Shown in pieces: positions 22,777-38,543 of a stretch of DNA of 48,836 nucleotides (position 1 is the first letter of the stretch; each line of letters begins with the position of its first letter). The notes under the pieces were generated by a model. The model was not told the origin of the DNA. It worked only from the letters and a program-made list of their open reading frames with translations, and made no database searches. The DNA comes from Escherichia phage T1: sequence record NC_005833.1, one strand, 5' to 3'. The position numbers and the translations under genes are program-made.

Positions 22777-22792
22777 CGCCATATAACAAAAG

Positions 22793-22827
22793 CCCGCCTT
22801 GCGCGGGTTTTTTTGTAGCTGTAGAAT
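22793..22827 (+). promoter_or_regulatory. terminator-promoter composite between M-like and L-like genes
   Basis: Hairpin CCCGC cttg GCGGG plus T7 run; overlapping TTGCGC 22799-22804, 17 nt, TAGAAT 22822-22827. Confidence 0.55.
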
Positions 22828-22855
22828 GGTTGCAGGTAAACAAGAGGAAAAATCA

Positions 22856-23638: not shown

Positions 23639-24369
23639 TTAGTGCAAAAATTAAACTTGAAATTATGACTCACGCTCAGGAAGAATACCCCCGCGAATGC
23701 TGCGGGGTAGTCACCCAAAAGGGCCGCGTGCAAAAATACCATCGCATTGATAATGTGCATCGTGATCCCGAGAATCATTTCATGATGGATGCTGTACAAT
23801 ACGCTTGCATTGAGGACGATGCGGAATCAACAACAATAGCAATTGTTCACAGCCACACAGGAGACGGGGCTACAACTCTACCAAGCGCTCACGATACGTG
23901 CATGTGCAACGAGATGGAAGTTACCTGGATTATTGTTAGCGTGCCGGAAGGGGATATGCGATTTGTGAAGCCGGAGAAATTGCCTCTGATTGGTCGTCCG
24001 TGGTCATTAGGATCATTCGACTGTTACGGTCTTGTTATGGCGTGGCACAAAGAGCACGGCGTAGAATTGCGCGATCGCCGATTGAATTTTGAATGGTGGA
24101 AACCTGAGTACGGAATTAATCTCTATCAGGATTATTACAAGCAGGATGGCTTCGTTGAGATTCCAGATCAGAATAATCCGTCATTCGGTGATATGGTAAT
24201 CATGCAGATAGGGCAAAACGTTCCGGTATGGAACCATGCAGGGATTTACCTGGGAGATAATCAGATCTTGCATCATGCCTTCGGCAAGCTATCTCGTCGT
24301 GATATTTATTCCGGATGGTATCAGGATCATACTGTTTTAATCGTTCGCCATAAGGATCTTAAATTATGA
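23635..24369 (+). CDS. tail assembly protein (lambda K-like; MPN/JAB plus NlpC/P60-type)
   Basis: Track ORF 23602..24369; start refined to ATG 23635 (ATGA overlap); HSHTG..D metal-site-like motif, Cys/His pairs. Confidence 0.6.
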   Translation: MISAKIKLEIMTHAQEEYPRECCGVVTQKGRVQKYHRIDNVHRDPENHFMMDAVQYACIEDDAESTTIAIVHSHTGDGATTLPSAHDTCMCNEMEVTWIIVSVPEGDMRFVKPEKLPLIGRPWSLGSFDCYGLVMAWHKEHGVELRDRRLNFEWWKPEYGINLYQDYYKQDGFVEIPDQNNPSFGDMVIMQIGQNVPVWNHAGIYLGDNQILHHAFGKLSRRDIYSGWYQDHTVLIVRHKDLKL

Positions 24370-24965
24370 ATGATGTAAAAGTAATTAAATTGTCAGGTTC
24401 ACTTGGGAGACGCTTCGGCGTCTTTCACCGTTACGCTGTTGACTCTTACCCGGAAGCCATACGGGCGCTATCCAGTCAGGTTGACGGATTTAAAGAATAC
24501 ATGCAAAGCGAGGTAGGATCTCGTAGCAAGTTTGCAATATTTGTGGATGGCGTTAACGTGGGACACCATGAAGAGGAAAAATTCAAGTGCGCGAAAGAGA
24601 TAAGAATCGTACCGATCCCTACTGGCTCTAAGACAGGAGGTCTATTTCAGGTTGTATTGGGCGCGGCAATAATGGTTGCAGCATTCTATACTGGCGGCGC
24701 GTCTCTGGCTTTAATGGGCACAATGTCCTCGTCTCTGTTTATGATGGGCGGCGCTATGGTGCTGGGCGGCGTGATGCAGATGATTTCACCGCAGCCGGGT
24801 GGCGCAAACTTTGAAGTTCAATCAAGCAAGAATAAACCTTCGTACGCGTTCGGCGGTGCTGTCAATACGACGGCGGCGGGATACCCTCTCCCGGTCCCGT
24901 ATGGATATCGCGCCGGAGGTGGGGCAACTTTCTCAGCAGGTTCTTATGCCGAGGATATGAGTTAA
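24366..24965 (+). CDS. tail assembly protein (lambda I-like)
   Basis: 199-aa ORF with Gly/Ala-rich hydrophobic C-terminal half; ATGA overlap with upstream gene. Confidence 0.6.
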   Translation: MNDVKVIKLSGSLGRRFGVFHRYAVDSYPEAIRALSSQVDGFKEYMQSEVGSRSKFAIFVDGVNVGHHEEEKFKCAKEIRIVPIPTGSKTGGLFQVVLGAAIMVAAFYTGGASLALMGTMSSSLFMMGGAMVLGGVMQMISPQPGGANFEVQSSKNKPSYAFGGAVNTTAAGYPLPVPYGYRAGGGATFSAGSYAEDMS

Positions 24966-24971
24966 AATTAA

Positions 24972-25006
24972 CCCGCCTTGCGCGGGTTTTTTTTCGCCTG
25001 TATAAT
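24972..25006 (+). promoter_or_regulatory. terminator-promoter composite between I-like and J-like genes (near-identical second copy)
   Basis: Same CCCGCCTTGCGCGGG + T-run; TTGCGC 24978-24983, 17 nt, TATAAT 25001-25006. Confidence 0.55.
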
Positions 25007-25042
25007 GAGTCCACCGATAAATAGCACAAAAAGGTAAACATC

Positions 25043-28000
25043 ATGATTCAAAAAGTGATAAGCGGATCTAAAGGTGGGTCACAGAAGCCTCATAACCCAG
25101 TTGAGATGGAGGACAATCTAATCTCAATCAACAAAATCAAGATCCTGTTAGCTGTATCTGATGGTGAAATTGACGAAACATTCAGCCTGAAGCAGTTGAT
25201 GTTTAACTCAGTCCCGGTGCAAAACGAGGATGGCTCATTTAACTTCGAGGGAGTAAAGGCAGAGTTCAGACCGGGGACGCAGACTCAGGAATATATCAAG
25301 GGAATGGAAGATAGCTCTAGTGAGGTAACTGTAAATCGTGAGGTTACTACCGATAACCCATACACAATCTCAGTAACCAACAAAACGCTGTCGGCAATCC
25401 GTATCAAAATGTTCATGCCTCGCGGCGTACGAATTGAAAGTAACGGTGATAAAAATGGCGTAAGAGTTGAGTATGAGGTGCAACAAGCTGTTGATGGCGG
25501 CTCGTTTGAGACGGTGCTCACCGATGTAATCGAAGGCAAAACAATGTCAGGTTACGATCGAAGCAGACGTGTAAACCTACCTAACTTCAACAATCAGGTG
25601 ATATTCAGAGTGGTTCGGAAAACTCCAGACTCTAACGACTCGAACGTTGTTGACGCGATTCAGGTAAAGAGCTATGCCGAGGTGATTGATGCCAAATTCC
25701 GTTATCCGCTGACTGGTCTTCTTTTTGTCGAGTTTGATTCGAAGATGTTCCCAAACCAGTTACCTACGATCTCAATTCGTAAGCGCTGGAAGATTGTAAA
25801 CGTTCCGTCAAACTATGATCCAGAATCACGAACTTATAACGGAAATTGGGATGGAACTTTTAAGAAGGCATGGACGAATAATCCGGCCTGGGTGCTTTAT
25901 GACCTGATGATTAATCAGCGTTATGGCTTGGATCAGAAAGAGCTTGGTATCGCTGTAGATAAATGGGCGCTCTACGAGGCTGCGCAATATTGCGATCAGA
26001 TGGTTCCTGATGGGAAGGGCGGGACGGAACCTCGATACCTTTGCGACGTGATAATCCAGTCTCAGACTGACGCTTACAAGGTTATCCGAGATATTTGCTC
26101 AATCTTTCGTGGTATGAGCTTTTGGAATGGTGAGAGCATTTCGGTAATCATCGACAGGCCGCGTGAACCTGCGTACATCTTCACTAACGACAACGTTGTT
26201 AATGGTGACTTCTCCTACACGTTCGCAAGCGAAAAGAGCATGTACACGACGTGTAATGTGATGTTTGATGATGAACAAAACATGTATCAGCAGGACGTTG
26301 AGCCAGTATTCGATCGTGAGGCTACTCTACGGTTTGGGAACAACGTTACGAGCATTACAGCGATCGGTTGCACACGTCGAAGCGAGGCCAACCGACGCGG
26401 GAGATGGATTCTGAAAACTAACCTCCGCAGCACTACGGTAAACTTCGCTACCGGGCTTGAGGGCATGATCCCGACAATCGGAGATGTTGTGGCAATAGCT
26501 GATAACTTCTGGTCAAGTAACTTGACAATGAACCTGTCAGGGCGTTTGCTCGAAGTGTCTGGAAGTCAGATTTTCTTGCCGTTCCGGGTGGATGCACGCG
26601 CTGGTGACTTTATTATCGTAAATAAGCCAGATGGCAAGCCTGTGAAGCGCACAATCTCAAGTGTTAGTGCGGATGGTAAGACTATAGAGGTTAACATTGG
26701 CTTTGGCTTTCCTGTGAAGCCTAACACGGTATTCGCTATCGACCGCACCGACATTGCGTTACAGCAGTACGTCGTGACAAAAATCGATAAGGGCGATGAT
26801 GATGAGGAATTTACCTACAAAATAACGGCGGTGGAGTACGATCCTAACAAGTATGATGAGATTGATTACGGAGTTAACATCGACGACCGACCGACGAGCA
26901 TCGTTGAACCAGATCAGATCCCTAGACCGAAAAATGTGCAAGTATCCTCAGAGTCGAGAATCGTCCAGGGGATGAGCGTAGAAACGATGATTGTTAGCTG
27001 GGATAAAGTTCCGTACGCTGTTTTCTATGACGTCCAGTGGCGAAAGGATAACGGCAACTGGCAAAATGTACCGCAGACAGCAAACAAAGAGGTATACGTT
27101 GAAGGTATTTACGCTGGCAACTATCAGGTTCGCGTTCGCTCAGTCGCTGGTTCGGGCACGACTTCAGGCTGGTCAAATATCGTCGCGGCAACGTTGACGG
27201 GTAAACAGGGTGAACCGGGCCGACCGATTAACCTCACAGCTACGGATGATGTTGTTTTTGGTATCCGTACAAAATGGGGGTTCTCTGATGGTTCTGGAGA
27301 TACAGCCTATACAGAGTTGCAACAGTCACCGGATGGAACAGTGGATAACGCAAGTTTGCTTTCTTTGATTCCGTATCCGCAGCATGAGTATTATCACTCA
27401 CCAATGCCTGGAGGGAATATTGTTTGGTATCGGGTAAGGACGGTTGACAGGATCGGTAACGTGTCTCAGTGGACTGATTTTGTCAGAGGTATGGCATCAA
27501 CAAACGTTGACGATATCATTGGGGAGATTTCTGTTGATATCGAAAACTCACCTGGTTACGAGTGGCTTGTTGATAACGCAACAGACAACGCGGCGCAGAA
27601 CTCAGCTAACGCAGAGGCAGCAATAGAAAACGCGCTCGCCAATGACAAAGACGCGATCTACATGAAGAAGGAGAACGGAAAACGAAAAGCTGAGTACACG
27701 AAATCACTGAAACTTATTGCTGATGAGACGCAGGCACGAGTGACGGCGATCGAGCAATTGAAGGCAAGTTTTGGCGATCAGATTAGCGCTAGCAACAGCG
27801 AGCTGCGTGAGGTTATCGCAACCGAGACTGAAGCACTATCGCGTGAGATTGACCAGCTTAAGGCTCAGATTGGTGACGATATTCAGGCAAGTCTGACTGA
27901 TATTCGGGAGGTTATCGCAACCGAGACTGAAGCACTATCGCGTGAGATTGACCAGCTTAAGGCTCAGATTGGTGACGATATTCAGGCAAGTCTGACTGAT

Positions 28001-28561
28001 ATTCGGGAGGCTATCGCGAACGAGACTGAGGCTAGAACGCAAGCTGACTTAACACTTAGCGCGCGGCTTGGAAATAACGAGGCGGCACTTGCTCAAAAAC
28101 TAGACTCGTGGAGTAACGCGGATTCTACTGGTGCAATGTACGGTGTCAAGTTGGGTCTGAAATACAACGGCCAGGAATACAGTGCAGGCATGGCTATGTC
28201 TCTAGTTGGTTCCGGAGCTGCGGTTAAGGCGCAGATTTTGTTTGAGGCGTCACGATTTGCCATCATGACTGGAATGAATGGTCAGACTCAGTACCCCTTC
28301 GTTGTTGAGAATGGTCAGGTTATTTTAAGTAGCGCGATTATCAAGAACGGATTCATCACCAACGCAATGATTGGAAACTTCATCCAGTCGAATAACTATG
28401 TATTTAACCAGTCCGGATGGAGGCTTGACAAGGGTGGAACATTCGAAAATTACGGAAGTGACGGTGAGGGTGCAATGAAGCAAACTAATACCACAATATC
28501 TGTTAGGGATGCGAGTGGTCGCCTGAGGGTTCAGATTGGCAGGTTGACTGGCTCATGGTAA
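25043..28561 (+). CDS. tail tip / host specificity protein (lambda J-like central fibre)
   Basis: 1172-aa ORF following M/L/K/I-like genes; contains a 2 x 99 bp perfect in-frame tandem repeat. Confidence 0.8.
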   Translation: MIQKVISGSKGGSQKPHNPVEMEDNLISINKIKILLAVSDGEIDETFSLKQLMFNSVPVQNEDGSFNFEGVKAEFRPGTQTQEYIKGMEDSSSEVTVNREVTTDNPYTISVTNKTLSAIRIKMFMPRGVRIESNGDKNGVRVEYEVQQAVDGGSFETVLTDVIEGKTMSGYDRSRRVNLPNFNNQVIFRVVRKTPDSNDSNVVDAIQVKSYAEVIDAKFRYPLTGLLFVEFDSKMFPNQLPTISIRKRWKIVNVPSNYDPESRTYNGNWDGTFKKAWTNNPAWVLYDLMINQRYGLDQKELGIAVDKWALYEAAQYCDQMVPDGKGGTEPRYLCDVIIQSQTDAYKVIRDICSIFRGMSFWNGESISVIIDRPREPAYIFTNDNVVNGDFSYTFASEKSMYTTCNVMFDDEQNMYQQDVEPVFDREATLRFGNNVTSITAIGCTRRSEANRRGRWILKTNLRSTTVNFATGLEGMIPTIGDVVAIADNFWSSNLTMNLSGRLLEVSGSQIFLPFRVDARAGDFIIVNKPDGKPVKRTISSVSADGKTIEVNIGFGFPVKPNTVFAIDRTDIALQQYVVTKIDKGDDDEEFTYKITAVEYDPNKYDEIDYGVNIDDRPTSIVEPDQIPRPKNVQVSSESRIVQGMSVETMIVSWDKVPYAVFYDVQWRKDNGNWQNVPQTANKEVYVEGIYAGNYQVRVRSVAGSGTTSGWSNIVAATLTGKQGEPGRPINLTATDDVVFGIRTKWGFSDGSGDTAYTELQQSPDGTVDNASLLSLIPYPQHEYYHSPMPGGNIVWYRVRTVDRIGNVSQWTDFVRGMASTNVDDIIGEISVDIENSPGYEWLVDNATDNAAQNSANAEAAIENALANDKDAIYMKKENGKRKAEYTKSLKLIADETQARVTAIEQLKASFGDQISASNSELREVIATETEALSREIDQLKAQIGDDIQASLTDIREVIATETEALSREIDQLKAQIGDDIQASLTDIREAIANETEARTQADLTLSARLGNNEAALAQKLDSWSNADSTGAMYGVKLGLKYNGQEYSAGMAMSLVGSGAAVKAQILFEASRFAIMTGMNGQTQYPFVVENGQVILSSAIIKNGFITNAMIGNFIQSNNYVFNQSGWRLDKGGTFENYGSDGEGAMKQTNTTISVRDASGRLRVQIGRLTGSW
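27811..28008 (+). repeat. perfect in-frame tandem duplication, 2 x 99 bp, inside J-like gene
   Basis: 27811-27909 and 27910-28008 read identically; encodes a 33-aa unit twice, followed by a diverged third unit. Confidence 0.8.
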
Positions 28562-28566
28562 TATCA

Positions 28567-28595
28567 AGGGCATCGAGAGATGCCCTTTTCTTTTG
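28567..28595 (+). terminator. rho-independent terminator after J-like gene
   Basis: AGGGCATC gaga GATGCCCT followed by TTTCTTTT. Confidence 0.6.
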
Positions 28596-28606
28596 GAGGA
28601 TTTATT

Positions 28607-28912
28607 ATGGCGTACGGTATATCAACTTGGGACGCAAATGGCGTTTATAATAACTATGGAATTAAGCCTATTACGGTTGTTGGTTGGAACTTTTTGTCAG
28701 CAGGCCAGAATTCAGCATCGTTCAGCTATCAAGTGCCTCCTGGTATGCATGTGAACTACGTTATAAGCCTTGACGATGGCGCCATTAGTGGGCCTGGCAG
28801 GAAAATTATTGCTAGCGGTAATACGATAACAGTAACGCCAACAAACTCACCTGGGCCAAACGTGTACCCATCATCAAACTGTTACTTAATAGCATATCTG
28901 GAGAATGATTAA
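28607..28912 (+). CDS. hypothetical protein, paralog of next gene
   Basis: Track ORF 28580..28912; start refined to ATG 28607 after GGAGGA; MAYGISTWDANG resembles MSYGAFIDVNGN of next ORF. Confidence 0.4.
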   Translation: MAYGISTWDANGVYNNYGIKPITVVGWNFLSAGQNSASFSYQVPPGMHVNYVISLDDGAISGPGRKIIASGNTITVTPTNSPGPNVYPSSNCYLIAYLEND

Positions 28913-29601
28913 TGTCATACGGTGCTTTTATAGATGTAAACGGAAACCCATTCATAACCCCGTTATCCACGCCATTCGCTTTATATGCGAGAGGGGAAAT
29001 TCAATCAGTAAATGTTAGTGGTTCACAGGTTGCGGAGAGATACGTTCGGATACCTACAGGTGTTCCGGTTATAGCTTTTTGCAAAACAACAAACACGCAG
29101 CAGGGGACCGCGCTTTCAGCCTTTACTTTCAGAAGCGGACCCAATGTTGGAACTGTTTATATAAGGGGGACAAATCCAGCAAACCAATCATACACGCTAA
29201 CATACTACATATTTGCCATATTTGAGCAGTCACTACCGAGATGGGGTATGGCAATATGGGATGCGTCAGGAAAGCTAGTGCTGACAAATGAGACAAAAGT
29301 CCTTAGTGATTTGGTTACAATCGGCACTCCTGGATACGCTGGCGGTGGATTAAACATAGACACAACACTCAGCGGAAGCTACGCGGTTGTTCCAACTATA
29401 CTTGGCAACTATCAAGTTGTTATTGGAAGGTTGCCAACTGGGCAACCAATAATAGGAAACTCAACAGCAGGCAGTTCATGCAGGTACAACGGGAGCACAA
29501 CGAGAATAAATGCAGCAGCAACCACTGCGGCAGGTCAGATAATGAACACAACGAATAATGGAAATATTATAACAGCAATCAAAACGGCAGCATACGACTA
29601 A
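28912..29601 (+). CDS. hypothetical protein, possible tail accessory
   Basis: 229-aa ORF, ATGA overlap; ATA/AGA-rich codon usage; followed by bidirectional terminator. Confidence 0.4.
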   Translation: MSYGAFIDVNGNPFITPLSTPFALYARGEIQSVNVSGSQVAERYVRIPTGVPVIAFCKTTNTQQGTALSAFTFRSGPNVGTVYIRGTNPANQSYTLTYYIFAIFEQSLPRWGMAIWDASGKLVLTNETKVLSDLVTIGTPGYAGGGLNIDTTLSGSYAVVPTILGNYQVVIGRLPTGQPIIGNSTAGSSCRYNGSTTRINAAATTAAGQIMNTTNNGNIITAIKTAAYD

Positions 29602-29624
29602 GCCCCTTGCGGGGCTTTTATTTT
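29601..29624. terminator. bidirectional terminator between convergent genes
   Basis: AGCCCC ttgc GGGGCT flanked by T-run (plus) and A-run (minus). Confidence 0.6.
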
Positions 29625-29850
29625 ATATCGAGCAATCGTGAGATTTGAAGTTTTTCTCTGATACATAGTTGAAGGAGAATGGGTATCCAGCACGCAATAC
29701 CATCTCCTTTCCGCGCATCTTAGATCCAAAAACGTAAACCGAGTACTCCGCGCCGCCTGATTCATAAATTGCCGTGCAAGTGCGCTCAGGCATCGATGAG
29801 CAACCAGTCAGGATGAATGCCGCAGCGATAATGGTGATTAACTTTTTCAT
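29623..29850 (-). CDS. small outer-membrane-type lipoprotein (Cor/Llp-like superinfection exclusion candidate)
   Basis: 75 aa; signal peptide with lipobox LTGC (MKKLITIIAAAFILTGCSS); lone reverse-strand gene after tail module. Confidence 0.5.
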   Translation of the reverse strand: MKKLITIIAAAFILTGCSSMPERTCTAIYESGGAEYSVYVFGSKMRGKEMVLRAGYPFSFNYVSEKNFKSHDCSI

Positions 29851-30000
29851 TTGTATGTCCTCGTCGTTAGTGTGATTGCATTGTATGTCGCATTTACTTT
29901 TATTGCAATAGAGCGATTACAATTTTTTTCGTGTAACAGGCGTATATTTTTGTAACCGGAATGGGTGTTACAAAATCGCCTCCATCCGACCGCAGGGAGA

Positions 30001-30070
30001 TATGATAAAAACTCTATATAATATATATAGATAGATAATATTTAATTTTAGCTTTATATATATAATTATT
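30001..30070. repeat. second alternating AT-rich tract with flanking GTGTAACA-type repeats
   Basis: ctctatataatatatatagatagataatatttaattttagctttatatatataattattg; CGTGTAACAGG at 29929 and 30099. Confidence 0.6.
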
Positions 30071-30318
30071 GTTGTGTAACAGTTGTATATCGTGTAACAG
30101 GTGATTTGATTGATTCGTCAAATTTCTATCATGTATGTTCAAAATTTAATCAATCTGGATTCTATTTGTAGGTATCTCTGTATTTCTAATAAAAAGCGGT
30201 TACAAGTGTTACGCAATAGACAGCGCATAAAAATCTACTTAAGCCATTGATTCTGTTGATGCTGGTTGTAACTTGAGCAATATAGACACGCAATTACACA
30301 CTGATTACATGTATTCGA

Positions 30319-30346
30319 TTGACTAAACGCTGTTAATGGCTATAAT
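30319..30346 (+). promoter_or_regulatory. sigma70-like promoter for recombination operon
   Basis: TTGACT 30319-30324, 16-nt spacer, TATAAT 30341-30346, about 30 nt upstream of exonuclease start. Confidence 0.6.
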
Positions 30347-30377
30347 GGATTCATCGTAAACGAAGGAGATAAACGCA

Positions 30378-31442
30378 ATGTTCCAGGTATTCACATCAAG
30401 CCAGCTTTCTAACGACGAGTATCATAGAAACGAAGGTTGGGCGTCAGAGTATGTAAGCGGATCGAGTCTTGCAGAAATTTATCAGACCTGCCCTGCTAAC
30501 TGGAGATTCAAGAAGAACGAGACAACGAAAGCTCTGGAGTTCGGTACTCAGTCGCACACCAACTTTGAGAGTCGAGATCTGTTTACTGCAACGTATGCTA
30601 GATGCCCTGCTCCGTCAGAGTTTAAGGATCTGATTACTTCGCAGGCGGCGCTGGCAGCAAAATTAAAATCATTCGGCCTGAAAGGTACATCCGGTAAGCA
30701 GTACCCGGACCTCATCAAAATGATGGTTGATTGTGGTGAAGAACTCAACGTTCAATACCTGATTGAACTGATCGCAGAAGCTGAGGCCCGTGCTGAAGGA
30801 AAACAACTTGTTGACGCGGACAAATACGACGCTTGCATGAAGATGAGAGCCATCCTTGAGCAGAATCCCGATCATGAAGCGTGCATCAACAGTGAAACGG
30901 CGCAGCGTGAGATTTCAATCTTCGGTGAGATATCCGGCGTAAAAGTTAAGGTTCGACTTGACCATCTGGACTACAAAGAGAATGTTCCAGGTCGTGTCCT
31001 GACTGGTTATGATGAGAATGGCGATCCGGTATTTGAAGACGTAATTTTCCCGGAAGCACTGATTATCACAGATTTCAAAACTACGATGAGCGCCAACCCG
31101 TTAGAGTTCCCGAGACTGGCATACAATCACGGCTATTACCTGAAGATGGCATTGCAGCATGACCTGCTACGACGCGCAATCCAGGCTGGAGCTTTTGAAG
31201 GTAACTTCCCGGAAGACATTCCGATCGTGGTTCGATTGCTTGCGCAGGAGAAAAAAGAGCCTTATATCGCACTGGCTTACCGTATGACTATGGAGCAAAT
31301 CAGGATAGGTCGTAACCAGTACATTAGCGTAGTCCACACTTACAAGGCTTGCTCTGAAATGGATGTTTGGCCTGGGTACGCTGGCGACGCAAGCGAGATC
31401 GAACTTGAAACGCCATCATGGGTGCGTTACCAAAATAAGTAA
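30378..31442 (+). CDS. PD-(D/E)XK-type exonuclease (recombination exonuclease)
   Basis: 354-aa ORF; IITDFKTT motif consistent with a D..(D/E)xK nuclease core; sigma70-like promoter 30319-30346; first gene of exo-annealase-SSB set. Confidence 0.55.
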   Translation: MFQVFTSSQLSNDEYHRNEGWASEYVSGSSLAEIYQTCPANWRFKKNETTKALEFGTQSHTNFESRDLFTATYARCPAPSEFKDLITSQAALAAKLKSFGLKGTSGKQYPDLIKMMVDCGEELNVQYLIELIAEAEARAEGKQLVDADKYDACMKMRAILEQNPDHEACINSETAQREISIFGEISGVKVKVRLDHLDYKENVPGRVLTGYDENGDPVFEDVIFPEALIITDFKTTMSANPLEFPRLAYNHGYYLKMALQHDLLRRAIQAGAFEGNFPEDIPIVVRLLAQEKKEPYIALAYRMTMEQIRIGRNQYISVVHTYKACSEMDVWPGYAGDASEIELETPSWVRYQNK

Positions 31443-31513
31443 ACGGCATAAATAGCTAAACAAATAATTAATGAGGTGTTATAATGCACCTCATACACCA
31501 ATCAGGAGAAGTT

Positions 31514-32164
31514 AAGATGCAATTATCACCAGAAACAAACGAAATCCTTCCCGCACTGTTCAATGCTCGCAATAAATTTGCTAAAGCAAAGAAGGACGCA
31601 AAAAACAATCACCTGAAAAATTCATACGCAACTCTTGATGCAATGATGGCTGCGGTTAGTCCGGCGCTAACCGACAACGATATTATGATCCTGCAATCAA
31701 TGCTGGACACCAGCACTGAAACAACCTTCCATCTTGAAACGATGCTGATTCACAAATCCGGGCAGTGGGCCAAATTCTTCATGATGATGCCGATTGCAAA
31801 GCGCGATCCGCAAGGCGTAGGTTCTGCAATGACGTATGCTCGACGTTACTCATTAGCCGCAGCGCTGGGGATTAGCCAGAGTGATGACGATGCTCAGCTT
31901 GCAGTGAAATCCGTCAAGGACTGGAAAAAAGAACTTGATGCGTGTGAAGACATCGAGTCACTGAAAGATGTATGGGCCAACGCTTACCGCCAGACTGACA
32001 CGGCGAGCAAGTCAATCATTCAGGATCACTACAACGCATTGAAGGCTAAATTTGAGATCGGTAAAGCTCGCGGCATTCGCCCGGCGCAACCGGAACAGAA
32101 AAAACAGGTTGAAGCAACAAGCGCGAAGCCTGTACAATCCCAATCAATCACCAACTTCGAATAA
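31514..32164 (+). CDS. single-strand annealing protein (Erf/RecT-like, positional)
   Basis: Track ORF 31484..32164; start refined to ATG 31514 after AGGAG; between exonuclease and SSB. Confidence 0.45.
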   Translation, partial: KMQLSPETNEILPALFNARNKFAKAKKDAKNNHLKNSYATLDAMMAAVSPALTDNDIMILQSMLDTSTETTFHLETMLIHKSGQWAKFFMMMPIAKRDPQGVGSAMTYARRYSLAAALGISQSDDDAQLAVKSVKDWKKELDACEDIESLKDVWANAYRQTDTASKSIIQDHYNALKAKFEIGKARGIRPAQPEQKKQVEATSAKPVQSQSITNFE

Positions 32165-32210
32165 TCATCAGGGCGGCTTAGGTCGCCCATAAAATTTAGG
32201 AGAGAAAAAC

Positions 32211-32633
32211 ATGCATATTATCACTGGCGAGATCCGCAAAGAACCAAAGATTCTTGAACGTAACGGCGGCAATACTTATATTATCGAACTGGCAGAAAGC
32301 TATAAGCCTCGTGATGGCGATCGCGAATACACCAACTACACGTTCTTTTTTAGCGACGGTGGGAAGCCAGGCCTTGCTGACTGGTATCGTGAAGCGTTCC
32401 AAGTTGGTCGAGTTATCTCAGTATCGTGCGAGACGTTGAAGATCTCATCACGCGAACACAACGGAATGATTTACAATTCATTGCAGGCGGCTGACTTCCC
32501 TAAACTAGTATTTAGTCAACGAGGTCAAAGCAACCAGCAACAACGAGCGCCTCAGCAACAACAGCGTTCTCAGCAGCAATCACAACCACAACCAAATCAA
32601 CAATCAACATTTGACGACGATATTCCATTCTAA
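32211..32633 (+). CDS. ssb: single-stranded DNA-binding protein
   Basis: 140 aa; Gln-rich linker and C-terminal acidic tip ..FDDDIPF characteristic of bacterial-type SSB. Confidence 0.8.
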   Translation: MHIITGEIRKEPKILERNGGNTYIIELAESYKPRDGDREYTNYTFFFSDGGKPGLADWYREAFQVGRVISVSCETLKISSREHNGMIYNSLQAADFPKLVFSQRGQSNQQQRAPQQQQRSQQQSQPQPNQQSTFDDDIPF

Positions 32634-32638
32634 AGAGA

Positions 32639-32664
32639 AGCCCCGCATTGCGGGGCTTTTTATT
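32639..32664. terminator. bidirectional terminator between ssb and convergent tail fibre gene
   Basis: AGCCCCG cattg CGGGGCT followed by T5. Confidence 0.65.
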
Positions 32665-32694
32665 ACTTCATCTCAATTGCCTTCGGAAATGAGT

Positions 32695-34881
32695 CTACGT
32701 ATTTTTTAAGCTTTCAACAAACTCTCCAGATACCATTCTTTCATGATTTCTTTTGCACTCTTCAACCTTCTTGTTGTAAATCGAGTCATTAGGCATCTCA
32801 ACTCGAACGCTAACAAAAACATCACTCGGAATGTCAATAGGATCTCCGTCGCTATACCCATCCTTATGATTTCTTGCGAATGAAGGCGCGTTATCATGAG
32901 TTCTATGATAAGTCTTGATAACCAAAGACCCATCAGGGTTAACATCATAATCTACCCACAATATAGGCTGTCCGTTAATGTCTTTTGGTATCTCTATACC
33001 ACCATTAACACCACCCCACGCTAGATCAGAATTTAGTGATAAACACCCCCTTATCAAATACTCGCCAGTAGAAATCCTCTCAACTGTACAACCTTCGCTC
33101 TCGTCGTTTGTTCTATGGCTCCCGTTGCCAAAAATATCAACGATGGGCGAGGCTCTTTTTATAAATCCGTTAGAGTCAACGGTTGTATTGCCTGTATTCC
33201 ATATAACCTGGGTAGATTGCCATTGCCCCGCTCCTGTCTGTTTTCTGAGCCTCACATCCTTATAGTGTGGAGAGGTCATTGATGCGTCTTCAATAACAAA
33301 ACCGAAAGCACTACCATCTCCTTGACCGTTTCTATGACGAACAGATATAGCTGTGACCCATCCAACAGAATTAACATTGTAACTTGCAAGGCTGCTAGGC
33401 TGAGATGATAAGGCGTTAACATAATCTACCCAGCTTGATTTCTCGTTAGATGCCGGACTTGATACAACGTTACCGGAAGAACTTGCCTGAAACGGTATCC
33501 ACGGAGAAAACTTTGCATTATTGCCGTTTTTCATCCTTATGTAAAAAGTGCCGCGACCCGCTCTTGCGTATTCGTTTTGAGAATTTCCAGATTCTGGGGC
33601 AGTACCCAAATAAGTAAAAGGCGTAAATCTCTGAATGCAAGCGCTTGCACCGTTAGCTCCATTAGGAAGAACCTCAAGCATACCTGCCGTAGCCTCAGGA
33701 TAGCCCCTACTAGCGGTAGCTAAAGCACTTGATGATTGCATATATATTCCAGGGCCATCACCTTCACCAGTTATTGAATCAAGATGTTTTTCCCCTAAGT
33801 TAGTTCTATCAAGTTTGTAAACCTTTAGGCTTGTCCTTGCCTGCTCCTCGGTAGTTCCACCAGTGCCACCAAAATTAACCCCTAGAGCCTTGTTTTCACT
33901 TCCATCATGAGTCATGGCGCCCCAGTCGCCGCTATCCTTGACGATCAGCTTAAATCCGGTCCTATCGTCATTTGAATAGATTTCCGTTAAATCTCCGCGA
34001 GGTTGATTTAATCTATTTACTGCTAGATTTTTCTTTGATTGCTCCTTGTCAGCAAGGCCAGAAAGATTTCCGTCCTTAGTTAAAAGATTGTCAGCATTAA
34101 CGCTATTTGCTGCGTCCTGAGCTTCCTGAGCACTTACCGCTGCCGCGTCTTTAGCGCTAACCGCCGCATCGCGTGCTGCCTGGGCATCGTTTTTTGCTGA
34201 GGTTGCAGTTTGCGCCGCAGTCTGAGCATCATTAACATAGCCAGATAGATCGCCTTTAGCGTCATTGATTGCCTGAATGGCCGCCGCCTCTTCAGAGTTA
34301 ATATGCGTAACGGCTGAATTTTCTTTTTGCTGCACATTAGTGATAGCCTTGTCTTTTGCTGCATTAATGCTACCAATAGCGCTATCTGAGATTTGCTGCG
34401 TCTGGTTTTTTATTGAGATAGACTCGTCACGCGCTGAATTAGCTGAGTCGCGAGCAAGCTCCGCTTGATTCTGCGCAGCTTCTGCGGCTGATTTGTTTGA
34501 CTTAATTTCTTGAACGATATTGTTCAGGTTGTCCATATCAAGATCGGCAATAATATCCAATGCCGATGCGATCTCAGTCTCTTTGCTCTGGTAGTACCGA
34601 AGCGTCTCAGCGACGTTTTGCGCAAGACCGTTAACGGTCAATGAATCGTTAAGCAAGATCACATACTTACCGTCAGCGGCAGTCTGACCATCCGTAGAGA
34701 TAGCCTTTAGCTCTGTGTCGCTCACAATGTCGCTGATTACCGCCAGTTTAATTGGTTGCTCCAGGAATACGATAGTTGCACCGACTCGAATCAGAGCAAG
34801 CTGATCTTTCCATTTTGTATCGGTTCCGTGAACCGTACCGTCTGCATCCATTGATGCAGTACCGCGTCTATATAAAGCCAT
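32695..34881 (-). CDS. tail fibre protein
   Basis: 728-aa reverse-strand ORF; long Ala/Gln/Asp/Ser-rich helical N-terminal region, Gly/Ser/Asn-rich beta-like C-terminal region. Confidence 0.6.
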   Translation of the reverse strand: MALYRRGTASMDADGTVHGTDTKWKDQLALIRVGATIVFLEQPIKLAVISDIVSDTELKAISTDGQTAADGKYVILLNDSLTVNGLAQNVAETLRYYQSKETEIASALDIIADLDMDNLNNIVQEIKSNKSAAEAAQNQAELARDSANSARDESISIKNQTQQISDSAIGSINAAKDKAITNVQQKENSAVTHINSEEAAAIQAINDAKGDLSGYVNDAQTAAQTATSAKNDAQAARDAAVSAKDAAAVSAQEAQDAANSVNADNLLTKDGNLSGLADKEQSKKNLAVNRLNQPRGDLTEIYSNDDRTGFKLIVKDSGDWGAMTHDGSENKALGVNFGGTGGTTEEQARTSLKVYKLDRTNLGEKHLDSITGEGDGPGIYMQSSSALATASRGYPEATAGMLEVLPNGANGASACIQRFTPFTYLGTAPESGNSQNEYARAGRGTFYIRMKNGNNAKFSPWIPFQASSSGNVVSSPASNEKSSWVDYVNALSSQPSSLASYNVNSVGWVTAISVRHRNGQGDGSAFGFVIEDASMTSPHYKDVRLRKQTGAGQWQSTQVIWNTGNTTVDSNGFIKRASPIVDIFGNGSHRTNDESEGCTVERISTGEYLIRGCLSLNSDLAWGGVNGGIEIPKDINGQPILWVDYDVNPDGSLVIKTYHRTHDNAPSFARNHKDGYSDGDPIDIPSDVFVSVRVEMPNDSIYNKKVEECKRNHERMVSGEFVESLKNT

Positions 34882-34901
34882 AGTATAAACTCCTTAAGTA
34901 A

Positions 34902-34945
34902 ATAGCACGAATTGCTAAGCAATGATTTTATCATTGTGATACCTG
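34902..34945 (+). promoter_or_regulatory. box copy between two reverse-strand genes (tail fibre and primase)
   Basis: ATAGCACGAATTGCTAAGC 34902-34920; hexamer position poor (TACCTG). Confidence 0.35.
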
Positions 34946-34960
34946 CCTTGCAATGGGCAA

Positions 34961-34983
34961 TAAAAAACCGCCCGAAGGCGGTT
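34961..34983 (-). terminator. rho-independent terminator of primase gene (reverse strand)
   Basis: AACCGCC cgaa GGCGGTT preceded on plus strand by A6 (T-run on reverse strand). Confidence 0.6.
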
Positions 34984-35917
34984 AGAGTAGGTCACTTGCT
35001 GAGAATAATTTGGCTTGCATTCCTGAGCGGTATCCTCCGGGATTCGGTATGATTATTTTTAATTGTCTGTCGTCTGCCATGTACAAGGTATCCTTGTCTG
35101 AAGGTTCACACGCCACCCTTACCTCTCGATCACCTTTATACCTGTATGCAACCATTTCGAGGTTTTCAGGGGTGAAGCAGGCCCATACCTCTTGCTTTGT
35201 GTGAAATGCAATATGCTGAGCATCAATCCAGTTAAGGCATAAGTAGATCGCCTTTTCAGTTTTACCAGTCACGGCAACCGAGCAACTCGTGTATTTCTTC
35301 GCATAAAATGACTCTCTTCCTTCTTCATCAATAATCAAAATATTGCAAAACTCATCATCAAGCCCATCCTCGTGCACAAGTTGACACGGTATAGTGTGAA
35401 ATACGCTCTCTCTTCCATCCTCGCTACGCTTTATACCGACATCGAATGATTCGGTGGGTAGTGACTCAAACACGCTCAACGGCGTATTTACACGTTTCTC
35501 TGTGCGCTCCATAACCTTCATCACCGCCTCATGTTCAGCCATCATGACATTGACACCTGACACCGGAGTCCGGCGCGCTTTCTTGTTTGCCTTGACGATG
35601 TATTCCTGCGGAACCTTTCCGAGAAATCTTCCCAGGATGTTTACGCATTCGCTGTACGGCATACCAGTCAACTTCATCAGCCAGCCAATACCAGAGTCGT
35701 TACCGCATGAGTTGCAGATCGCACCGCCGTCGCCCGGGGTGTTCAGGTTATCAGTCCAGCGAAATCGGTCTTTACCGCCGCAGTTGGGGCAGGGTTGGTG
35801 CTTCTTATTAAAAACATTATTCGGCAATCCGCAGATTGATTGGAAAGCCTCGCGCCATAACCCCTTCATGTACGGTAAAACGTCCTCTTTCTGAAACATC
35901 ATAAATTCTTCGTTCAC
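34982..35917 (-). CDS. DNA primase (zinc-ribbon type)
   Basis: CPNCGGKDRFRWTD..CNSCG zinc-binding motif as in phage primase-helicase zinc domains; own terminator 34961-34983. Confidence 0.55.
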   Translation of the reverse strand: MNEEFMMFQKEDVLPYMKGLWREAFQSICGLPNNVFNKKHQPCPNCGGKDRFRWTDNLNTPGDGGAICNSCGNDSGIGWLMKLTGMPYSECVNILGRFLGKVPQEYIVKANKKARRTPVSGVNVMMAEHEAVMKVMERTEKRVNTPLSVFESLPTESFDVGIKRSEDGRESVFHTIPCQLVHEDGLDDEFCNILIIDEEGRESFYAKKYTSCSVAVTGKTEKAIYLCLNWIDAQHIAFHTKQEVWACFTPENLEMVAYRYKGDREVRVACEPSDKDTLYMADDRQLKIIIPNPGGYRSGMQAKLFSASDLL

Positions 35918-35929
35918 TTCCAGATCTCC

Positions 35930-35969
35930 AAAATAAAAAACGCGTAGAAGGATGTTAACCCGCTACGCG
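35930..35969 (-). terminator. rho-independent terminator after HTH gene (reverse strand)
   Basis: CGCGTAG .. CTACGCG inverted repeat; plus-strand A-run 35930-35940 is the reverse-strand T-run. Confidence 0.5.
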
Positions 35970-35978
35970 TCGTTTGTT

Positions 35979-36431
35979 TTAACTAAAAATGCTATTGGTC
36001 GTTCCGATATCTTCCCTCTTCACGACGCGCATAAATTTCTTGTTCTTGCATCGCTTCTCAAGGCACTTGCCGTTACCGTCAAACTTCAGGTCGAATCGCA
36101 ACCATGCGGCCCTAAACCCTTTGCACCCCTGTCGGCGGTAAGCACGATGCGCAGCTTCAGCGCCTTGCCATGAAATCATATTGCGTTCTTTCCAGCCTTG
36201 CACCGTCTGATTGCTAACCTTCAGAGCCTTTGCGCAGGCCGCCGGGCCGCCGTAATATTCGATAAGGGCATCAAGTCGCGCTCGCAGTCCGGCGCGCGTT
36301 TCTTCTTTATGAATATAGAACCCGCAACGCTGGCGAGGCTTTTTATCTTTACCGCGCCGTGTTCCGTTGTTACCATTGATGTGACGTTTATCGATTTCAC
36401 CAGTTGACTCTGCGATACGTTGAATACTCAT
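35979..36431 (-). CDS. HTH DNA-binding protein (possible transcriptional regulator)
   Basis: 150 aa; basic; helix-turn-helix-like AACAKALKVSNQTVQGW segment. Confidence 0.4.
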   Translation of the reverse strand: MSIQRIAESTGEIDKRHINGNNGTRRGKDKKPRQRCGFYIHKEETRAGLRARLDALIEYYGGPAACAKALKVSNQTVQGWKERNMISWQGAEAAHRAYRRQGCKGFRAAWLRFDLKFDGNGKCLEKRCKNKKFMRVVKREDIGTTNSIFS

Positions 36432-36443
36432 CTTGATTCCCCT

Positions 36444-36500
36444 ATAGCACTTTTTGCTAAAAACGTTTACTTTATGCCGTGTATTATAGCGTAAACGTTA
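36444..36500 (+). promoter_or_regulatory. conserved box-hairpin element upstream of helicase
   Basis: ATAGCACTTTTTGCTAAAAAC; TTGCTA 36454-36459; 22-nt spacer; TATTAT 36482-36487; AACGTTTAC / GTAAACGTT arms. Confidence 0.55.
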
Positions 36501-36524
36501 CAACGATTCAAAGGATTAATAGCC

Positions 36525-38543
36525 GTGACAATGAACATTAAAAAACAGATTGCATTACTTGGCGATGACTATATAAAGAGAACTCAGGAGCGATTTACTG
36601 TTGGTGAGGTTGTTCCTTATCCGTACCAGGTTGTTGCTTATGCCGAGATCGCGAAACGCCTATCAAATTACGAGCATCCATTCTTCGTTAAAGCGTCTGT
36701 ATCCGCAGGTAAGACAATCATCTTCGCTATGGTGGCAAAGCAGTGTCAGAAAATGGGCTTAAAAATGCTTGTCCTGGCTCGTCAGGGTGAGATTGTCGAT
36801 CAGGATAGCGAAGAGATCGACAACTTCGGGGTAACGAACTCCATCTTCTCAGCGTCACTTGGAATCAAGTCCTGCTACTTCCCGATCGTGGTTGGCTCAG
36901 AGGGTACTGTTGCAAATGGCCTCGACAATGAGTTAGCTGATTTCGTCCCGCATGTAATTGGGATCGACGAATGTCACCAGGTGGATTGGGAAGACCTTGC
37001 GCAAGCCATCGAGGGTAAGGAAACAATGGAACAAATGAGGGGCGAGAAAGGGAAAATTATCATGGACGGAGATATTCCCCTGATTGGTAATGATGGAAAG
37101 CCTTTGCTTGGAACTAAGCGCAGTCAGTACACGATCGTAATCATGGAAATGATGCGGCGCTGTAAAAAGGTTCACGGTCACGATCTCAGAATATTTGGTA
37201 TGACTGGATCTGAATTTCGTGGCGTAGTTCCTATTCTGGTAGAGAATCCGAAAGCATTGGGATTCTGGCGTGAGCGAGTAACTGATATCGACACAAACTA
37301 TCTGATTGAGTTCGGCTCTGTCGTTCCGACTATATTCGGATCAACAGACGGAGTTCATTACGATCTTGATAAGTTCAAGGCGTCTAGCGAGGACGGAGTG
37401 CAGGACTTTACAGAGAAAGACATGAAGGCTATGGAAGATGAGATCCTTCATGATAAATCTCTGACTCAGCGAATCATGCAAATGGTCGCCAAAAAGGCAG
37501 AAGAACGCAATGCGGTCCTGATTACATGTGCTGGTGTGCGCCACTGCAAAGAGGCAGCGGCAGCACTTCCTCCGGGAAGCACCTATGCAATTATTACTGG
37601 CGACACAGACAACAAAGCGCGCAAGAAGATTCTTGACGATGTAAGGGCCGGAAAAATTAAATACACCTTTCAGGTAATGGCGCTCACTACTGGCGTTAAC
37701 GTTCCAAATTGGGATTTCAGTGTCATACTCCGCAAGATAGGATCGCTCACTCTGTTGATTCAACTTTTGGGTAGGGGTATGCGACTGCTTAAATCCTGGC
37801 AGGTTGCTGAAGGAATGGTTAAGCAGGACCATCTGGTATGGGATTTTGCAGGTACGATGGATGAGCTGGGTCAGCTTTATTTCGATCCGATACTTGAGCA
37901 GGCGCAATTCCAGAAGCGTTTTGAAAACGGCAAAGATCCGAAAACATGTCCGAAATGCGGTTGCGTAAATAGCTTCTATGCTCGACGATGCGTTAATGTC
38001 ATTGATGGTGAGCGTTGCGATCATTTCTGGACTTCTCAGATTTGTGAGGACCAGGTTGACGAGCGAACCGGGAAAATCCTTGTTAAAGGATGCGGTGCAG
38101 AGAATGACGTTGTTGCGCGAGTCTGTCGTTGTTGTGATGCTTCTCTTGTCGATCCTAACCTGAAGTTATCCGGTAAGGCGTACACCAAGAATGACTGGTA
38201 TGAAGTAAAGAATTTTGAGGTTACGCTAACCAAAAACCAGAAAGGCATAATATACAAATACACTCTGATTAACGACGATGGTGATGAGTTCAAGGCGTAT
38301 GAAAAATTCTTCCCCGAGTCTGACTCTAAGATTTGCGGTACGCTATGGAAAACTAAAGGTGTACTTCCTCATGTGTCAGATCCTAAAATGCGCCGCTACT
38401 TTATCGGAATGAAGAACGCCATCAAGATTTTGCAATACTCACATCATATTGCTCACCCGGTGCGCGTAACTCATCGTCGCAACCAGAAGAAAGAAGATAT
38501 CATCTCACGCAAAGACTTCGGTATGGAGGATATCCCGGAATGA
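36525..38543 (+). CDS. SF2 DNA helicase (DEAH-type) with C-terminal zinc-ribbon
   Basis: Walker A SVSAGKT, motif II IGIDECH; C-terminal CPKCGC..CRCCD cysteine clusters. Confidence 0.8.
   Translation: MTMNIKKQIALLGDDYIKRTQERFTVGEVVPYPYQVVAYAEIAKRLSNYEHPFFVKASVSAGKTIIFAMVAKQCQKMGLKMLVLARQGEIVDQDSEEIDNFGVTNSIFSASLGIKSCYFPIVVGSEGTVANGLDNELADFVPHVIGIDECHQVDWEDLAQAIEGKETMEQMRGEKGKIIMDGDIPLIGNDGKPLLGTKRSQYTIVIMEMMRRCKKVHGHDLRIFGMTGSEFRGVVPILVENPKALGFWRERVTDIDTNYLIEFGSVVPTIFGSTDGVHYDLDKFKASSEDGVQDFTEKDMKAMEDEILHDKSLTQRIMQMVAKKAEERNAVLITCAGVRHCKEAAAALPPGSTYAIITGDTDNKARKKILDDVRAGKIKYTFQVMALTTGVNVPNWDFSVILRKIGSLTLLIQLLGRGMRLLKSWQVAEGMVKQDHLVWDFAGTMDELGQLYFDPILEQAQFQKRFENGKDPKTCPKCGCVNSFYARRCVNVIDGERCDHFWTSQICEDQVDERTGKILVKGCGAENDVVARVCRCCDASLVDPNLKLSGKAYTKNDWYEVKNFEVTLTKNQKGIIYKYTLINDDGDEFKAYEKFFPESDSKICGTLWKTKGVLPHVSDPKMRRYFIGMKNAIKILQYSHHIAHPVRVTHRRNQKKEDIISRKDFGMEDIPE

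Follow-up and report, generated by a model that had tools for sequence, protein, structure and literature searches.

The lateral tail fibre of coliphage T1 is encoded at a Drexlerviridae-typical locus, probably as its own transcription unit, and exchanges its distal part

How does a tail fibre gene come to lie among the replication genes of coliphage T1, and which part of it is exchanged between phages? The window, that is, the whole stretch of DNA analysed here, is coliphage T1 with a length of 48,836 bp. An earlier note, made from the sequence alone, had placed a fibre gene on the - strand between ssb and the primase gene and about 3 kb from the other tail genes. The translated ORF and the Pfam and PHROG assignments of its neighbours confirmed this position (Table 1). 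The 2 tail-tip/RBP-locus genes that follow gpJ end at position 29601, which leaves a gap of 3,094 bp to the fibre gene, and the convergent ssb gene is reached after a spacer of 61 nt on the 3' side of the fibre stop codon. The ORF was 99.5% identical to that of Tunavirus T1 MN153797. The GC skew was negative across 32-37 kb, as expected from coding on the - strand.

Table 1. Coordinates of the features in and around the fibre locus of the T1 window
Feature	Position	Strand	Residues	Basis or remark
Main tail genes	18036 to 28561	+		gpJ last, 25043-28561
Inverted block, approximate	29851..34981	.		exo leader, exo, erf, ssb and fibre with promoter; relative to Eclunavirus
Exonuclease VIII	30378-31442	+		Pfam/PHROG
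Erf	31484-32164	+		Pfam/PHROG
SSB	32211-32633	+		phrog_44, 8.6e-24
Intrinsic terminator shared by ssb and fibre	32635..32661	.		convergent genes; plausibly bidirectional
Lateral tail fibre CDS	32695..34881	-	728 aa	ATG start, 77,957 Da; ORF list and translation
Exchangeable distal module	32698..34026	-	aa 286-728	without DNA homology in most close relatives
Phage_tail_C_2 domain	32788..33189	-	aa 565-698
Main mosaic joint	34027..34095	-	aa 263-285, ADNLLTKDGNLSGLADKEQSKKN	homology resumption; onset of StarDew identity
Ala/Ser/Asn/Asp/Gln-rich shaft	34096..34578	-	aa 102-262	composition; length varies
N-terminal anchor domain	34579..34881	-	aa 1-101	invariant motif GLAQxVAETLRYYQ
Shine-Dalgarno AAGGAG	34890..34895	-		8 nt 5' of ATG; read from sequence; conserved in Tunavirus
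T1-family repeat box TAGCA-N5-TGCTA, one copy	34903..34917	.		between -10 and Shine-Dalgarno, inverted relative to fibre
Candidate sigma-70 promoter of fibre	34925..34953	-		TTGCAA, 17-nt spacer, TGaTAAAAT (extended -10)
Intrinsic terminator after primase	34966..34983	- only		overlaps primase stop codon; scan match
Primase	34982-35917	-		phrog_510, 1e-109
Cro-like regulator	35979-36431	-	150 aa	Pfam/PHROG
Helicase	36525-38543	+		Pfam/PHROG

The ORF is the Drexlerviridae lateral (side) tail fibre of T1. The protein matched the tail fibre family phrog_1591 in the PHROG profile search (E=5.5e-150) and Pfam Phage_tail_C_2 (PF25670) over model positions 1-133 of 133 (2.4e-60; 202.9 bits, the cut-off being 27), and a search of NCBIfam gave no match. 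A tblastn search with the protein returned matches throughout Drexlerviridae. The orthologue by position and strand in Tunavirus SH6 is ORF54, the "second tail fibre" of Hamdi et al. (2017, PMC5238451), the first 286 amino acids of which were 80% identical to the T1 fibre. LC-MS/MS of purified SH6 virions recovered 17 unique peptides of ORF54, covering 42% of the protein, among 11 proteins detected in all (PMC5238451, Table 2), and the orthologue in Sfin-1 was likewise detected in virions (PMC6714547). The tail fibre identity given in the earlier note was thereby upheld. The locus as a whole is very probably explained by a lateral fibre that has its own transcription unit, occupies a position typical of Drexlerviridae and exchanges its distal part.

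Such a transcription unit would be small, consisting of the primase terminator, the extended -10 promoter, a repeat box, the Shine-Dalgarno sequence, the CDS and the terminator shared with ssb. The hairpin on the ssb side has a folding energy of -20.4 kcal/mol on the + strand (z = -5.8), followed by a U-run, and of -16.9 kcal/mol on the - strand (z = -4.3), followed by the tail UCUCUUU. Its counterpart in the relative SA32RD is annotated on both strands, and the terminator is plausibly bidirectional. The hairpin on the primase side (-11.8 kcal/mol) is followed by UUUUUUAUU on the - strand only; the + strand continues as UAGAGUAGG, and this terminator is therefore not bidirectional. Both of the hairpins that were said to bracket the gene thus exist, and the bidirectionality claimed for the second one was the only inaccuracy in what had been observed.

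The promoter is a candidate, a match to the consensus that is backed by conservation. Its hexamers were conserved across Tunavirus, while the spacer sequence was variable, and a terminator followed by an extended -10 was likewise found in Webervirus, Eclunavirus, Tempevirinae, and Rogunavirus. A fibre promoter has been annotated independently in phage Chapo. Among 76 distinct upstream sequences, representing all 3 gene orders described below, almost all contained a hairpin with a T-run. As the gene has a terminator on either side and a conserved extended -10 promoter of its own, the separate transcription proposed for this gene was borne out at the level of its signals. It is unlikely that the fibre gene instead closes a leftward operon with the regulator and primase genes and is expressed because a weak terminator is read through. 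The gene does follow the primase gene directly on the same strand, the hairpin between them is modest, and in Webervirus the fibre gene comes last in a long series of genes on one strand, with regulator, primase, exo, erf, and ssb before it, but the hairpin, T-run and extended -10 recur whether primase, ssb or tip genes precede, and conserved hexamers around a drifting spacer are typical of a functional promoter.

With regard to the protein, the anchor of about 100 amino acids was 43% to 64% identical to 7 representatives from other genera, with 30 invariant columns, and the lambdoid mEp010 fibre is included in this conservation. Relatives of the anchor were encoded on 157 IMG/VR stretches. 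The shaft contains 39 alanines in 162 residues, is conserved in sequence only within Tunavirus according to the protein alignment, and is presumed to be a trimeric coiled coil. The fibre protein is probably a trimer, in which the first ~100 residues would dock the fibre to the tail tip and the Ala-rich coiled-coil shaft (~160 residues) would carry the distal part (~450 residues) outwards. The GC3 value of the distal module was 0.35, compared to 0.43 for the 5' part of the gene.

The distal part of the T1 fibre is non-enzymatic-looking. It gave no pectate-lyase-type Pfam match, and the AF2 model of residues 280 to 728 consisted of short strands with no β-helix, although the middle part was of low confidence (pLDDT <50 for aa 406-512). 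Foldseek comparisons of this model against the PDB yielded nothing below E=0.015, with TM scores of at most 0.16. Neither a Peptidase_S74 domain (PF13884) nor the SDxxLK autocleavage motif was present at the C-terminus of the T1 fibre in the Pfam search and the alignment. The motif was found in the fibres of LeonhardEuler, SH6, DELF2, and ESP2949-1, and the distal part in SH6 ends in the Peptidase_S74 intramolecular chaperone, whereas that of T1 ends in Phage_tail_C_2. A further comparison is with Depo32 of the Webervirus Klebsiella phage GH-K3 (PDB 7VYV, 7VZ3, 7LZJ; PMC10581125), a relative of T1 in which the gene at this locus encodes a protein with the same anchor (E=1e-43, aa 1-163). Depo32 is a β-helix tailspike enzyme, whereas the T1 protein consists of a shaft and a distal part, and the sequence similarity stops at residue 163. 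The anchor is not resolved in the Depo32 maps (PMC10581125) and hence is without a structure.

A total of 1,004 relatives of the Phage_tail_C_2 domain were identified at E<=1e-10. The domain recurs in gp12 of the Kuravirus SU10, a proximal long tail fibre protein (PDB 7Z47; PMC9509320), in which the C-terminal 145 residues were 63% identical to T1. SU10 gp12 is a podovirus fibre with an adaptor-binding N-terminus, and a separate distal protein, gp13, adjoins the domain, unlike in T1, where no gp13 homologue was found anywhere in the window. Moreover, E. coli prophages encode a Phage_tail_C_2 protein of 477 amino acids followed by 2 opposed Peptidase_S74 ORFs and an invertase. By analogy, the T1 domain might serve as a dock and not as a receptor-binding tip, and the T1 protein might be a proximal half-fibre that carries a distal subunit lost or encoded elsewhere and does not set the host range alone, as would also fit the lack of fibres on laboratory T1 (PMC11945409). 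We nevertheless give this explanation little credence: no such downstream gene is present in T1, Chapo, SA32RD, StarDew, or the Enterobacter prophages, the gp13 homologue is missing, and the predicted compact β fold of the domain, which has a weak likeness to the end domains of tailspikes and fibres, would suit a terminal domain equally well.

Binding to surface glycans as the primary, non-essential receptor has been proposed for the Drexlerviridae lateral fibre (PMC8594841). In T1, the distal part would make the first, reversible contact with the host surface, most likely with LPS or O-antigen glycans, and irreversible binding to FhuA is left to separate proteins of the tail tip, the genes for which follow gpJ. 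A lateral fibre density was absent from the cryo-EM reconstruction of laboratory T1, which the authors term fibreless (PMC11945409), and virion association in T1 itself thus rests on the orthologues. The fibre of laboratory T1 could accordingly be a dispensable relic that is nearing loss, like stf in lambda PaPa, and in addition to the fibreless stock other T1 assemblies contained shaft deletions of 72 and 79 amino acids and the fibre gene was split in one GenBank record. This is improbable, since the ORF is intact in the T1 sequence analysed here, both deletions are in frame and spare the anchor and the distal part, and the split record, T1 isolate 22, is likely an assembly artefact with homopolymer junk and duplicated segments.

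To place the T1 locus in its family, 94 loci were fetched, 82 of which could be typed for gene order. The T1-type order, regulator-primase-fibre on one strand facing ssb-erf-exo, was observed in 47 loci, the Webervirus type in 33 and the Eclunavirus type in 2, and the adjacency of the fibre and ssb genes was retained in both variant orders. The T1-type order occurred in Tunavirinae, Tempevirinae, Rogunavirinae, and Kyungwonvirus and is common to most Drexlerviridae genera. The relocation suggested in the earlier note is not compatible with these counts as an event peculiar to T1, and the position of the fibre gene between recombination and replication genes had already been published in 2021 (PMC8594841, S1C Fig). 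In that study of BASEL collection phages by Maffei et al. (2021), the same gene has the recombination genes on one side and the primase and helicase genes on the other, and has a conserved 5' end and a hypervariable remainder proposed to make the first contact with O-antigen glycans. T1 does not differ from this description in any essential way; the joint coordinates, the 3 gene orders and the block inversion relative to Eclunavirus are added here.

In Eclunavirus, Dhillonvirus, and the lambdoid phage mEp010, the fibre gene comes immediately after gpJ and has the same orientation. In mEp010, the Stf-type protein gp118 has a homologous anchor (44% identity over aa 3-119), and, like the T1 fibre, the lambdoid side fibres are accessory fibres that sit on a lambda-like tail tip and have a modular distal part. 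In T1, however, the gpJ end and the fibre gene are 4.1 kb apart and on opposite strands, and no tail fibre assembly gene is adjacent to the fibre gene, unlike in the Stf/Tfa type. Alignments to the Eclunavirus genomes Ec_L1 and Phc showed that T1 positions 30432-34884 were reversed, whereas positions 28340-28668 and 35021-36995 aligned forwards. Thus, T1 differs from the genomes with the fibre after gpJ by an inversion of about 5 kb that comprises the fibre, ssb, erf, and exo genes together. The fibre gene has not been moved by itself, and the inversion of the block explains the presence of a structural gene among replication genes without a special relocation of the fibre.

The 3 gene orders in Drexlerviridae would be related by inversions. 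A neighbour-joining tree of primase, exo, and erf, inferred without support values, placed Webervirus and Eclunavirus inside the T1-type lineages with a lambda-like outgroup, and neither this tree nor a gpJ tree with HK578 as the outgroup singled out an ancestral order. No recombination signature was found at the inverted block within positions 29500-35100, and the only inverted repeat between the block ends in this region was a 22-nt match with 73% identity (30233 vs 34882), which is probably due to chance.

The mosaic boundaries were mapped by the DNA homology of T1 to 18 Tunavirus loci. On the ssb side, homology ended at 32631-32668 in 15 of the loci, with a median of 32660, in agreement with the boundary predicted at 32664. 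The second boundary had been expected upstream of the gene at 34900, where none of the loci had a break; in 16 loci homology instead resumed inside the gene, within 34027-34091 (codons about 264-285), and in the remaining 2 it did so at 34568, near codon 104. The first 790-850 nt of the gene, together with its promoter and terminator, belong to the backbone with 87% to 92% identity, and residues L266 and L273 in the joint were nearly invariant in the protein alignment. As judged from these alignments, the conserved backbone extends over promoter and anchor and, in most cases, over the shaft as well, and exchange is limited to the distal two-thirds of the gene. The gene is thus exchangeable in part, in that relatives carry different distal parts, rather than as an entire cassette.

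The distal module was also seen in gp26 of the Dhillonvirus StarDew, which is encoded after the gpJ/RBP genes in a lambda-like position, unlike in T1. This protein was 55% identical overall to T1 residues 110 to 710, most strongly from about residue 262, and has an unrelated N-terminus, so that essentially the whole T1 distal module is shared on a different anchor. Of 1,338 phage records, just one other covered at least 80% of the T1 fibre protein. A search of E. coli genomes with the distal DNA retrieved only a match of 134 nt with 70% identity, and no prophage donor was found. SH6 ORF54 has been described as a chimera of T1 type and HK578 type (PMC5238451), and new host specificities would arise by recombination that replaces the distal part only.

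A recent inversion and movement of the whole gene as a host-range cassette in T1, bounded by 32664 and 34900, is very improbable, since, despite the opposite strand, the distance of 3.1 kb from the tail-tip genes, the hairpins on either side and a left boundary that is indeed near 32660, the position and orientation are the same in 4 subfamilies or genera, the 5' part with its promoter and terminator is backbone, no locus breaks at 34900 and the recombination genes are inverted along with the fibre relative to Eclunavirus.

Publications on SH6 in 2017 (PMC5238451) and on the BASEL phages in 2021 (PMC8594841) had already described this locus, including its unusual surroundings and chimeric make-up. 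Since both the odd position and the swappable outer part have been described for the T1 family, the finding is real but ordinary and carries little weight as a discovery. For the engineering of T1 specificity, one cut is best placed within codons about 264-285 and the other at the terminator next to ssb (~32660), such that the anchor, shaft and promoter are kept.

The repeat box upstream of the fibre gene is one of 21 copies in the window, compared to 1.39 expected, and is known from phage TLS as a 21-nt repeat (PMC11447400). Its presence upstream of the fibre was conserved in several genera. At the fibre promoter the box is located at about +1 in inverted orientation, as opposed to about -42 at ~14 early or replication promoters, so that one hypothetical factor binding to the box could have opposite effects on the fibre and on the early genes. 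If true, this would give the fibre a late timing despite its early-gene surroundings. We consider it improbable that the fibre gene, along with its terminator, promoter and box, has behaved as a self-contained unit, flipped repeatedly in the history of Drexlerviridae and timed late by such a factor. As an RNA hairpin, the box (-3.8 kcal/mol, z = -1.2) was no better than shuffled sequence. A rightward promoter using this box was rejected, as the sequence 22 nt downstream, TACCTG in T1, lacks conservation among the relatives. The boxes were also rejected as inversion sites, since those at the block ends in Eclunavirus are in direct rather than inverted orientation. The other 2 inverted boxes are located directly upstream of the gene for the major head protein and of the gene after that for the major tail protein.

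The gene content of the window (48,836 bp, coliphage T1) matched that of Tunavirus T1 (GenBank MN153797), to which the region 32000-36000 was 99.5% identical. The ORF at 32695-34881 on the reverse strand, which encodes a protein of 728 amino acids (78.0 kDa, pI 5.0), is the T1 lateral tail fibre gene. The closest gene associated with the tail lay 3,094 bp away; gpJ was followed by 2 tip-locus genes ending at 29601 and by the lipoprotein gene cor on the reverse strand. Apart from the terminators, the ORF, strand and position were as described in the earlier note, the interpretation of which was partly right (own signals, swappable distal part, left boundary) and partly wrong (the right boundary is intragenic, T1 shows no relocation, and a single terminator is plausibly bidirectional).

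Coordinates of features at the fibre locus and elsewhere in the window
Feature	Position	Strand	Remark
Tail module	major tail protein (18036) to gpJ (25043-28561)	+	
Exonuclease VIII	30378-31442	+	Pfam and PHROG
Erf	31484-32164	+	Pfam and PHROG
SSB	32211-32633	+	Pfam and PHROG
Phage_tail_C_2 domain of fibre	aa 565-698		Pfam
AAGGAG (Shine-Dalgarno) of fibre	34895-34890	-	
Box TAGCAATTCGTGCTA upstream of fibre	34917-34903	read on -	
TGaTAAAAT, extended -10 of fibre	34933-34925	-	
Spacer, 17 nt	between TTGCAA and TGaTAAAAT	-	
TTGCAA, candidate promoter of fibre	34953-34948	-	3' of primase terminator
Primase	34982-35917	-	Pfam and PHROG
Cro-like regulator	35979-36431	-	Pfam and PHROG
Helicase	36525-38543	+	Pfam and PHROG
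Box sites, among 21 copies	105, 1451, 2270, 3536, 4345, 4865, 6532, 8363, 15071, 18835, 34903, 36445, 38954, 40309, 41957, 47102, 47618, 48736		

The 2 genes downstream of gpJ (28580-29601; 110 and 229 amino acids) were matched by equally sized, identically placed counterparts in both Eclunavirus and lambdoid prophages of E. coli (2619-3595 in prophage locus L102). They constitute the locus for receptor binding that has been described in small siphoviruses, and their PHROG labels, outer membrane and membrane-associated proteins, look misleading.

The fibre region was compared with 18 Tunavirus loci. Homology from the left ended at 32631-32668 in 15 of these, with a median of 32660, in agreement with the boundary predicted at 32664, and the last 80 to 110 codons of the fibre gene were also common to 3 of the 18 loci. 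The right boundary had been placed at 34900, where none of the 18 loci showed a break; it was instead found inside the gene: homology restarted at 34027-34091 (codons about 264 to 285) in 16 loci, and the remaining 2 regained it at 34568 (codon about 104). Exchange, as proposed for a host-range cassette, was thus borne out, but the exchanged unit is the distal part rather than the whole gene. The main joint coincided with the motif NADNLLTKDGNLSGL, beyond which the proteins of close relatives ended in either Phage_tail_C_2 (T1, Chapo, and SA32RD) or Peptidase_S74 (LeonhardEuler, SH6, and DELF2). That this fibre is chimeric was already pointed out for SH6 in 2017 (PMC5238451).

The N-terminal anchor (amino acids 1 to 100) was conserved across Drexlerviridae at 43% to 64% identity, with an invariant GLAQxVAETLRYYQ, and also in the fibre of a lambdoid phage, whose gene comes after gpJ. 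It matched Depo32, a Webervirus depolymerase, in the N-terminal "anchor" (E=1e-43), which has no resolved density in the Depo32 maps (PMC10581125). Conservation of the Ala-rich shaft (amino acids 102 to 262) was limited to Tunavirus, and the distal part (amino acids about 286 to 728) was variable. Among 1,338 phage records, just one other spanned 80% or more of the protein. The Dhillonvirus StarDew fibre was 55% identical overall to amino acids 110 to 710 of T1, most strongly from about amino acid 262, whereas its N-terminus was unrelated; the Phage_tail_C_2 domain of T1 shared 63% identity with the C-terminal end of SU10 gp12.

Shaft deletions at about 34190-34433 (amino acids 150 to 231) were present in other T1 assemblies built from public sequencing runs (including locus L100). 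The deletions were in frame, of 72 (P0001) and 79 (P0002, 6 contigs) amino acids, and the remainder of the region was 99.9% identical; shaft length is therefore polymorphic among T1 stocks. The junction of the 79-residue deletion was at a 5-nt microhomology, TCAGC. In MN153797 (T1 isolate 22), the fibre gene was annotated as 2 CDSs, and segments at 8266-8500, corresponding to 34195-34570 in the window, were duplicated and swapped and accompanied by the run AAAAAAAATAGGGGCCCCCCCCCCTTTTTT, which resembles an assembly error across the repetitive shaft more than a genuine break in the gene. In 3 E. coli prophages (L102 to L104, about 4001-7532), gpJ and small tip genes were followed by a 477-residue Phage_tail_C_2 protein, 2 opposed Peptidase_S74 ORFs and a resolvase/HTH_7 invertase, an arrangement that resembles a switch in which inversion would select between alternative distal fibre subunits while the proximal one stays constant.

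Absence from the virion by proteomics, the refuting condition set in the earlier note, is addressed by published work on orthologues. Only 11 proteins were detected in purified SH6 virions, and ORF54, the orthologue at the same position, was one of them (17 unique peptides, 42% coverage; PMC5238451, Table 2). CDS61 of Sfin-1 was detected too, although that data set was less clean and also contained non-structural proteins (PMC6714547). The absence of lateral fibre density from the 2025 cryo-EM structure of laboratory T1 (PMC11945409) counts against virion association.

The suggested relocation of the gene was not specific to T1, since the order helicase, regulator-primase-fibre, ssb-erf-exo was also annotated in Tunavirus relatives, Kyungwonvirus, Rogunavirus, Warwickvirus, and 2 unclassified relatives. 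Typing by tblastn of 80 anchor-domain loci from IMG/VR together with GenBank loci (82 of 94 typable) identified the T1 order in 47, the Webervirus order (regulator-primase-exo-erf-ssb-fibre on one strand, converging on gpJ) in 33 and a third order (gpJ-tip genes-fibre on one strand, then ssb-erf-exo-primase on the other) in 2, counts that mirror sampling and not natural frequency. The third order was that of Eclunavirus (Ec_L1 and Phc), and its lambda-like placement of the fibre gene after gpJ was shared with Dhillonvirus HK578 and StarDew and with the lambdoid mEp010. Positions 30432-34884 of T1 aligned in reverse to Eclunavirus, whereas 28340-28668 and 35021-36995 aligned forwards. T1 differed from Eclunavirus by one inversion of a block of fibre, ssb, erf, and exo with a 0.5-kb leader, so that the suggested inversion and displacement were partly borne out, but for the fibre gene together with the recombination genes, not alone; in Webervirus, it was inverted alone relative to Eclunavirus. 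Webervirus and Eclunavirus were nested among T1-type lineages in a neighbor-joining tree without support values, and the outgroup was lambda-like. The T1-type fibre locus and its neighbours have already been described (PMC8594841, S1C Fig), and little here is therefore new.

The non-coding stretch upstream of exo (29851-30377, 527 bp) has an AT-rich core at about 30010-30070, around which are 3 exact copies of GTGTAACAG (29931, 30074, and 30092) along with variants that include TGTAACCGG and GTGTTACAA; the stretch may be an origin of replication or an array of operators. The equivalent region in Ec_L1, with an AT-rich core and a different, AATCCTCCGCAA-like repeat motif, travels with exo inside the inverted block.

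In all three gene orders, irrespective of the upstream gene, the fibre gene was preceded by a hairpin with a T-run, itself followed by an extended -10 element, and the sequence therefore supports an autonomous transcription unit; expression by read-through from the primase gene is a possible alternative. Separate transcription, as postulated earlier, would draw on the gene's own signals: the primase terminator, a Shine-Dalgarno sequence and a predicted promoter, the hexamers of which were fixed across Tunavirus while the spacer sequence drifted. Of the bidirectional terminators thought to bracket the gene, the hairpin at 32635-32661 plausibly qualifies, as it folded well in either direction, followed by a U-run on one strand and by a U-rich tail on the opposite one, and an equivalent was annotated on both strands in the relative SA32RD. 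The hairpin at 34966-34983 does not, having a U-run on the reverse strand only.

The box upstream of the fibre gene belongs to the repeat TAGCA-N5-TGCTA, present in 21 copies in the window versus 1.39 expected, nearly all intergenic. It is known from phage TLS, with its function given as unknown (PMC11447400). At about 14 sites, it was oriented as TAGCAC-N4-TG(C/T)TAaaac, 22 nt before a -10-like element and centred near -42; with the trailing aaac, this element was often inside the loop of a short hairpin. Inverted boxes were located directly upstream of structural genes at 15071 (major head protein), 18835 (the gene after the major tail protein) and 34903 (fibre), the latter 2 adjoining the ribosome-binding site on its upstream side. 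This split in orientation does not seem to be part of the TLS description (PMC11447400). The arrangement of terminator, extended -10 element (TGGTAAAAT), box, Shine-Dalgarno sequence and ATG recurred at 8311-8400, here with the box forward. The small gene that follows it immediately precedes the 527-residue ORF at 8945-10528, where the late region begins.
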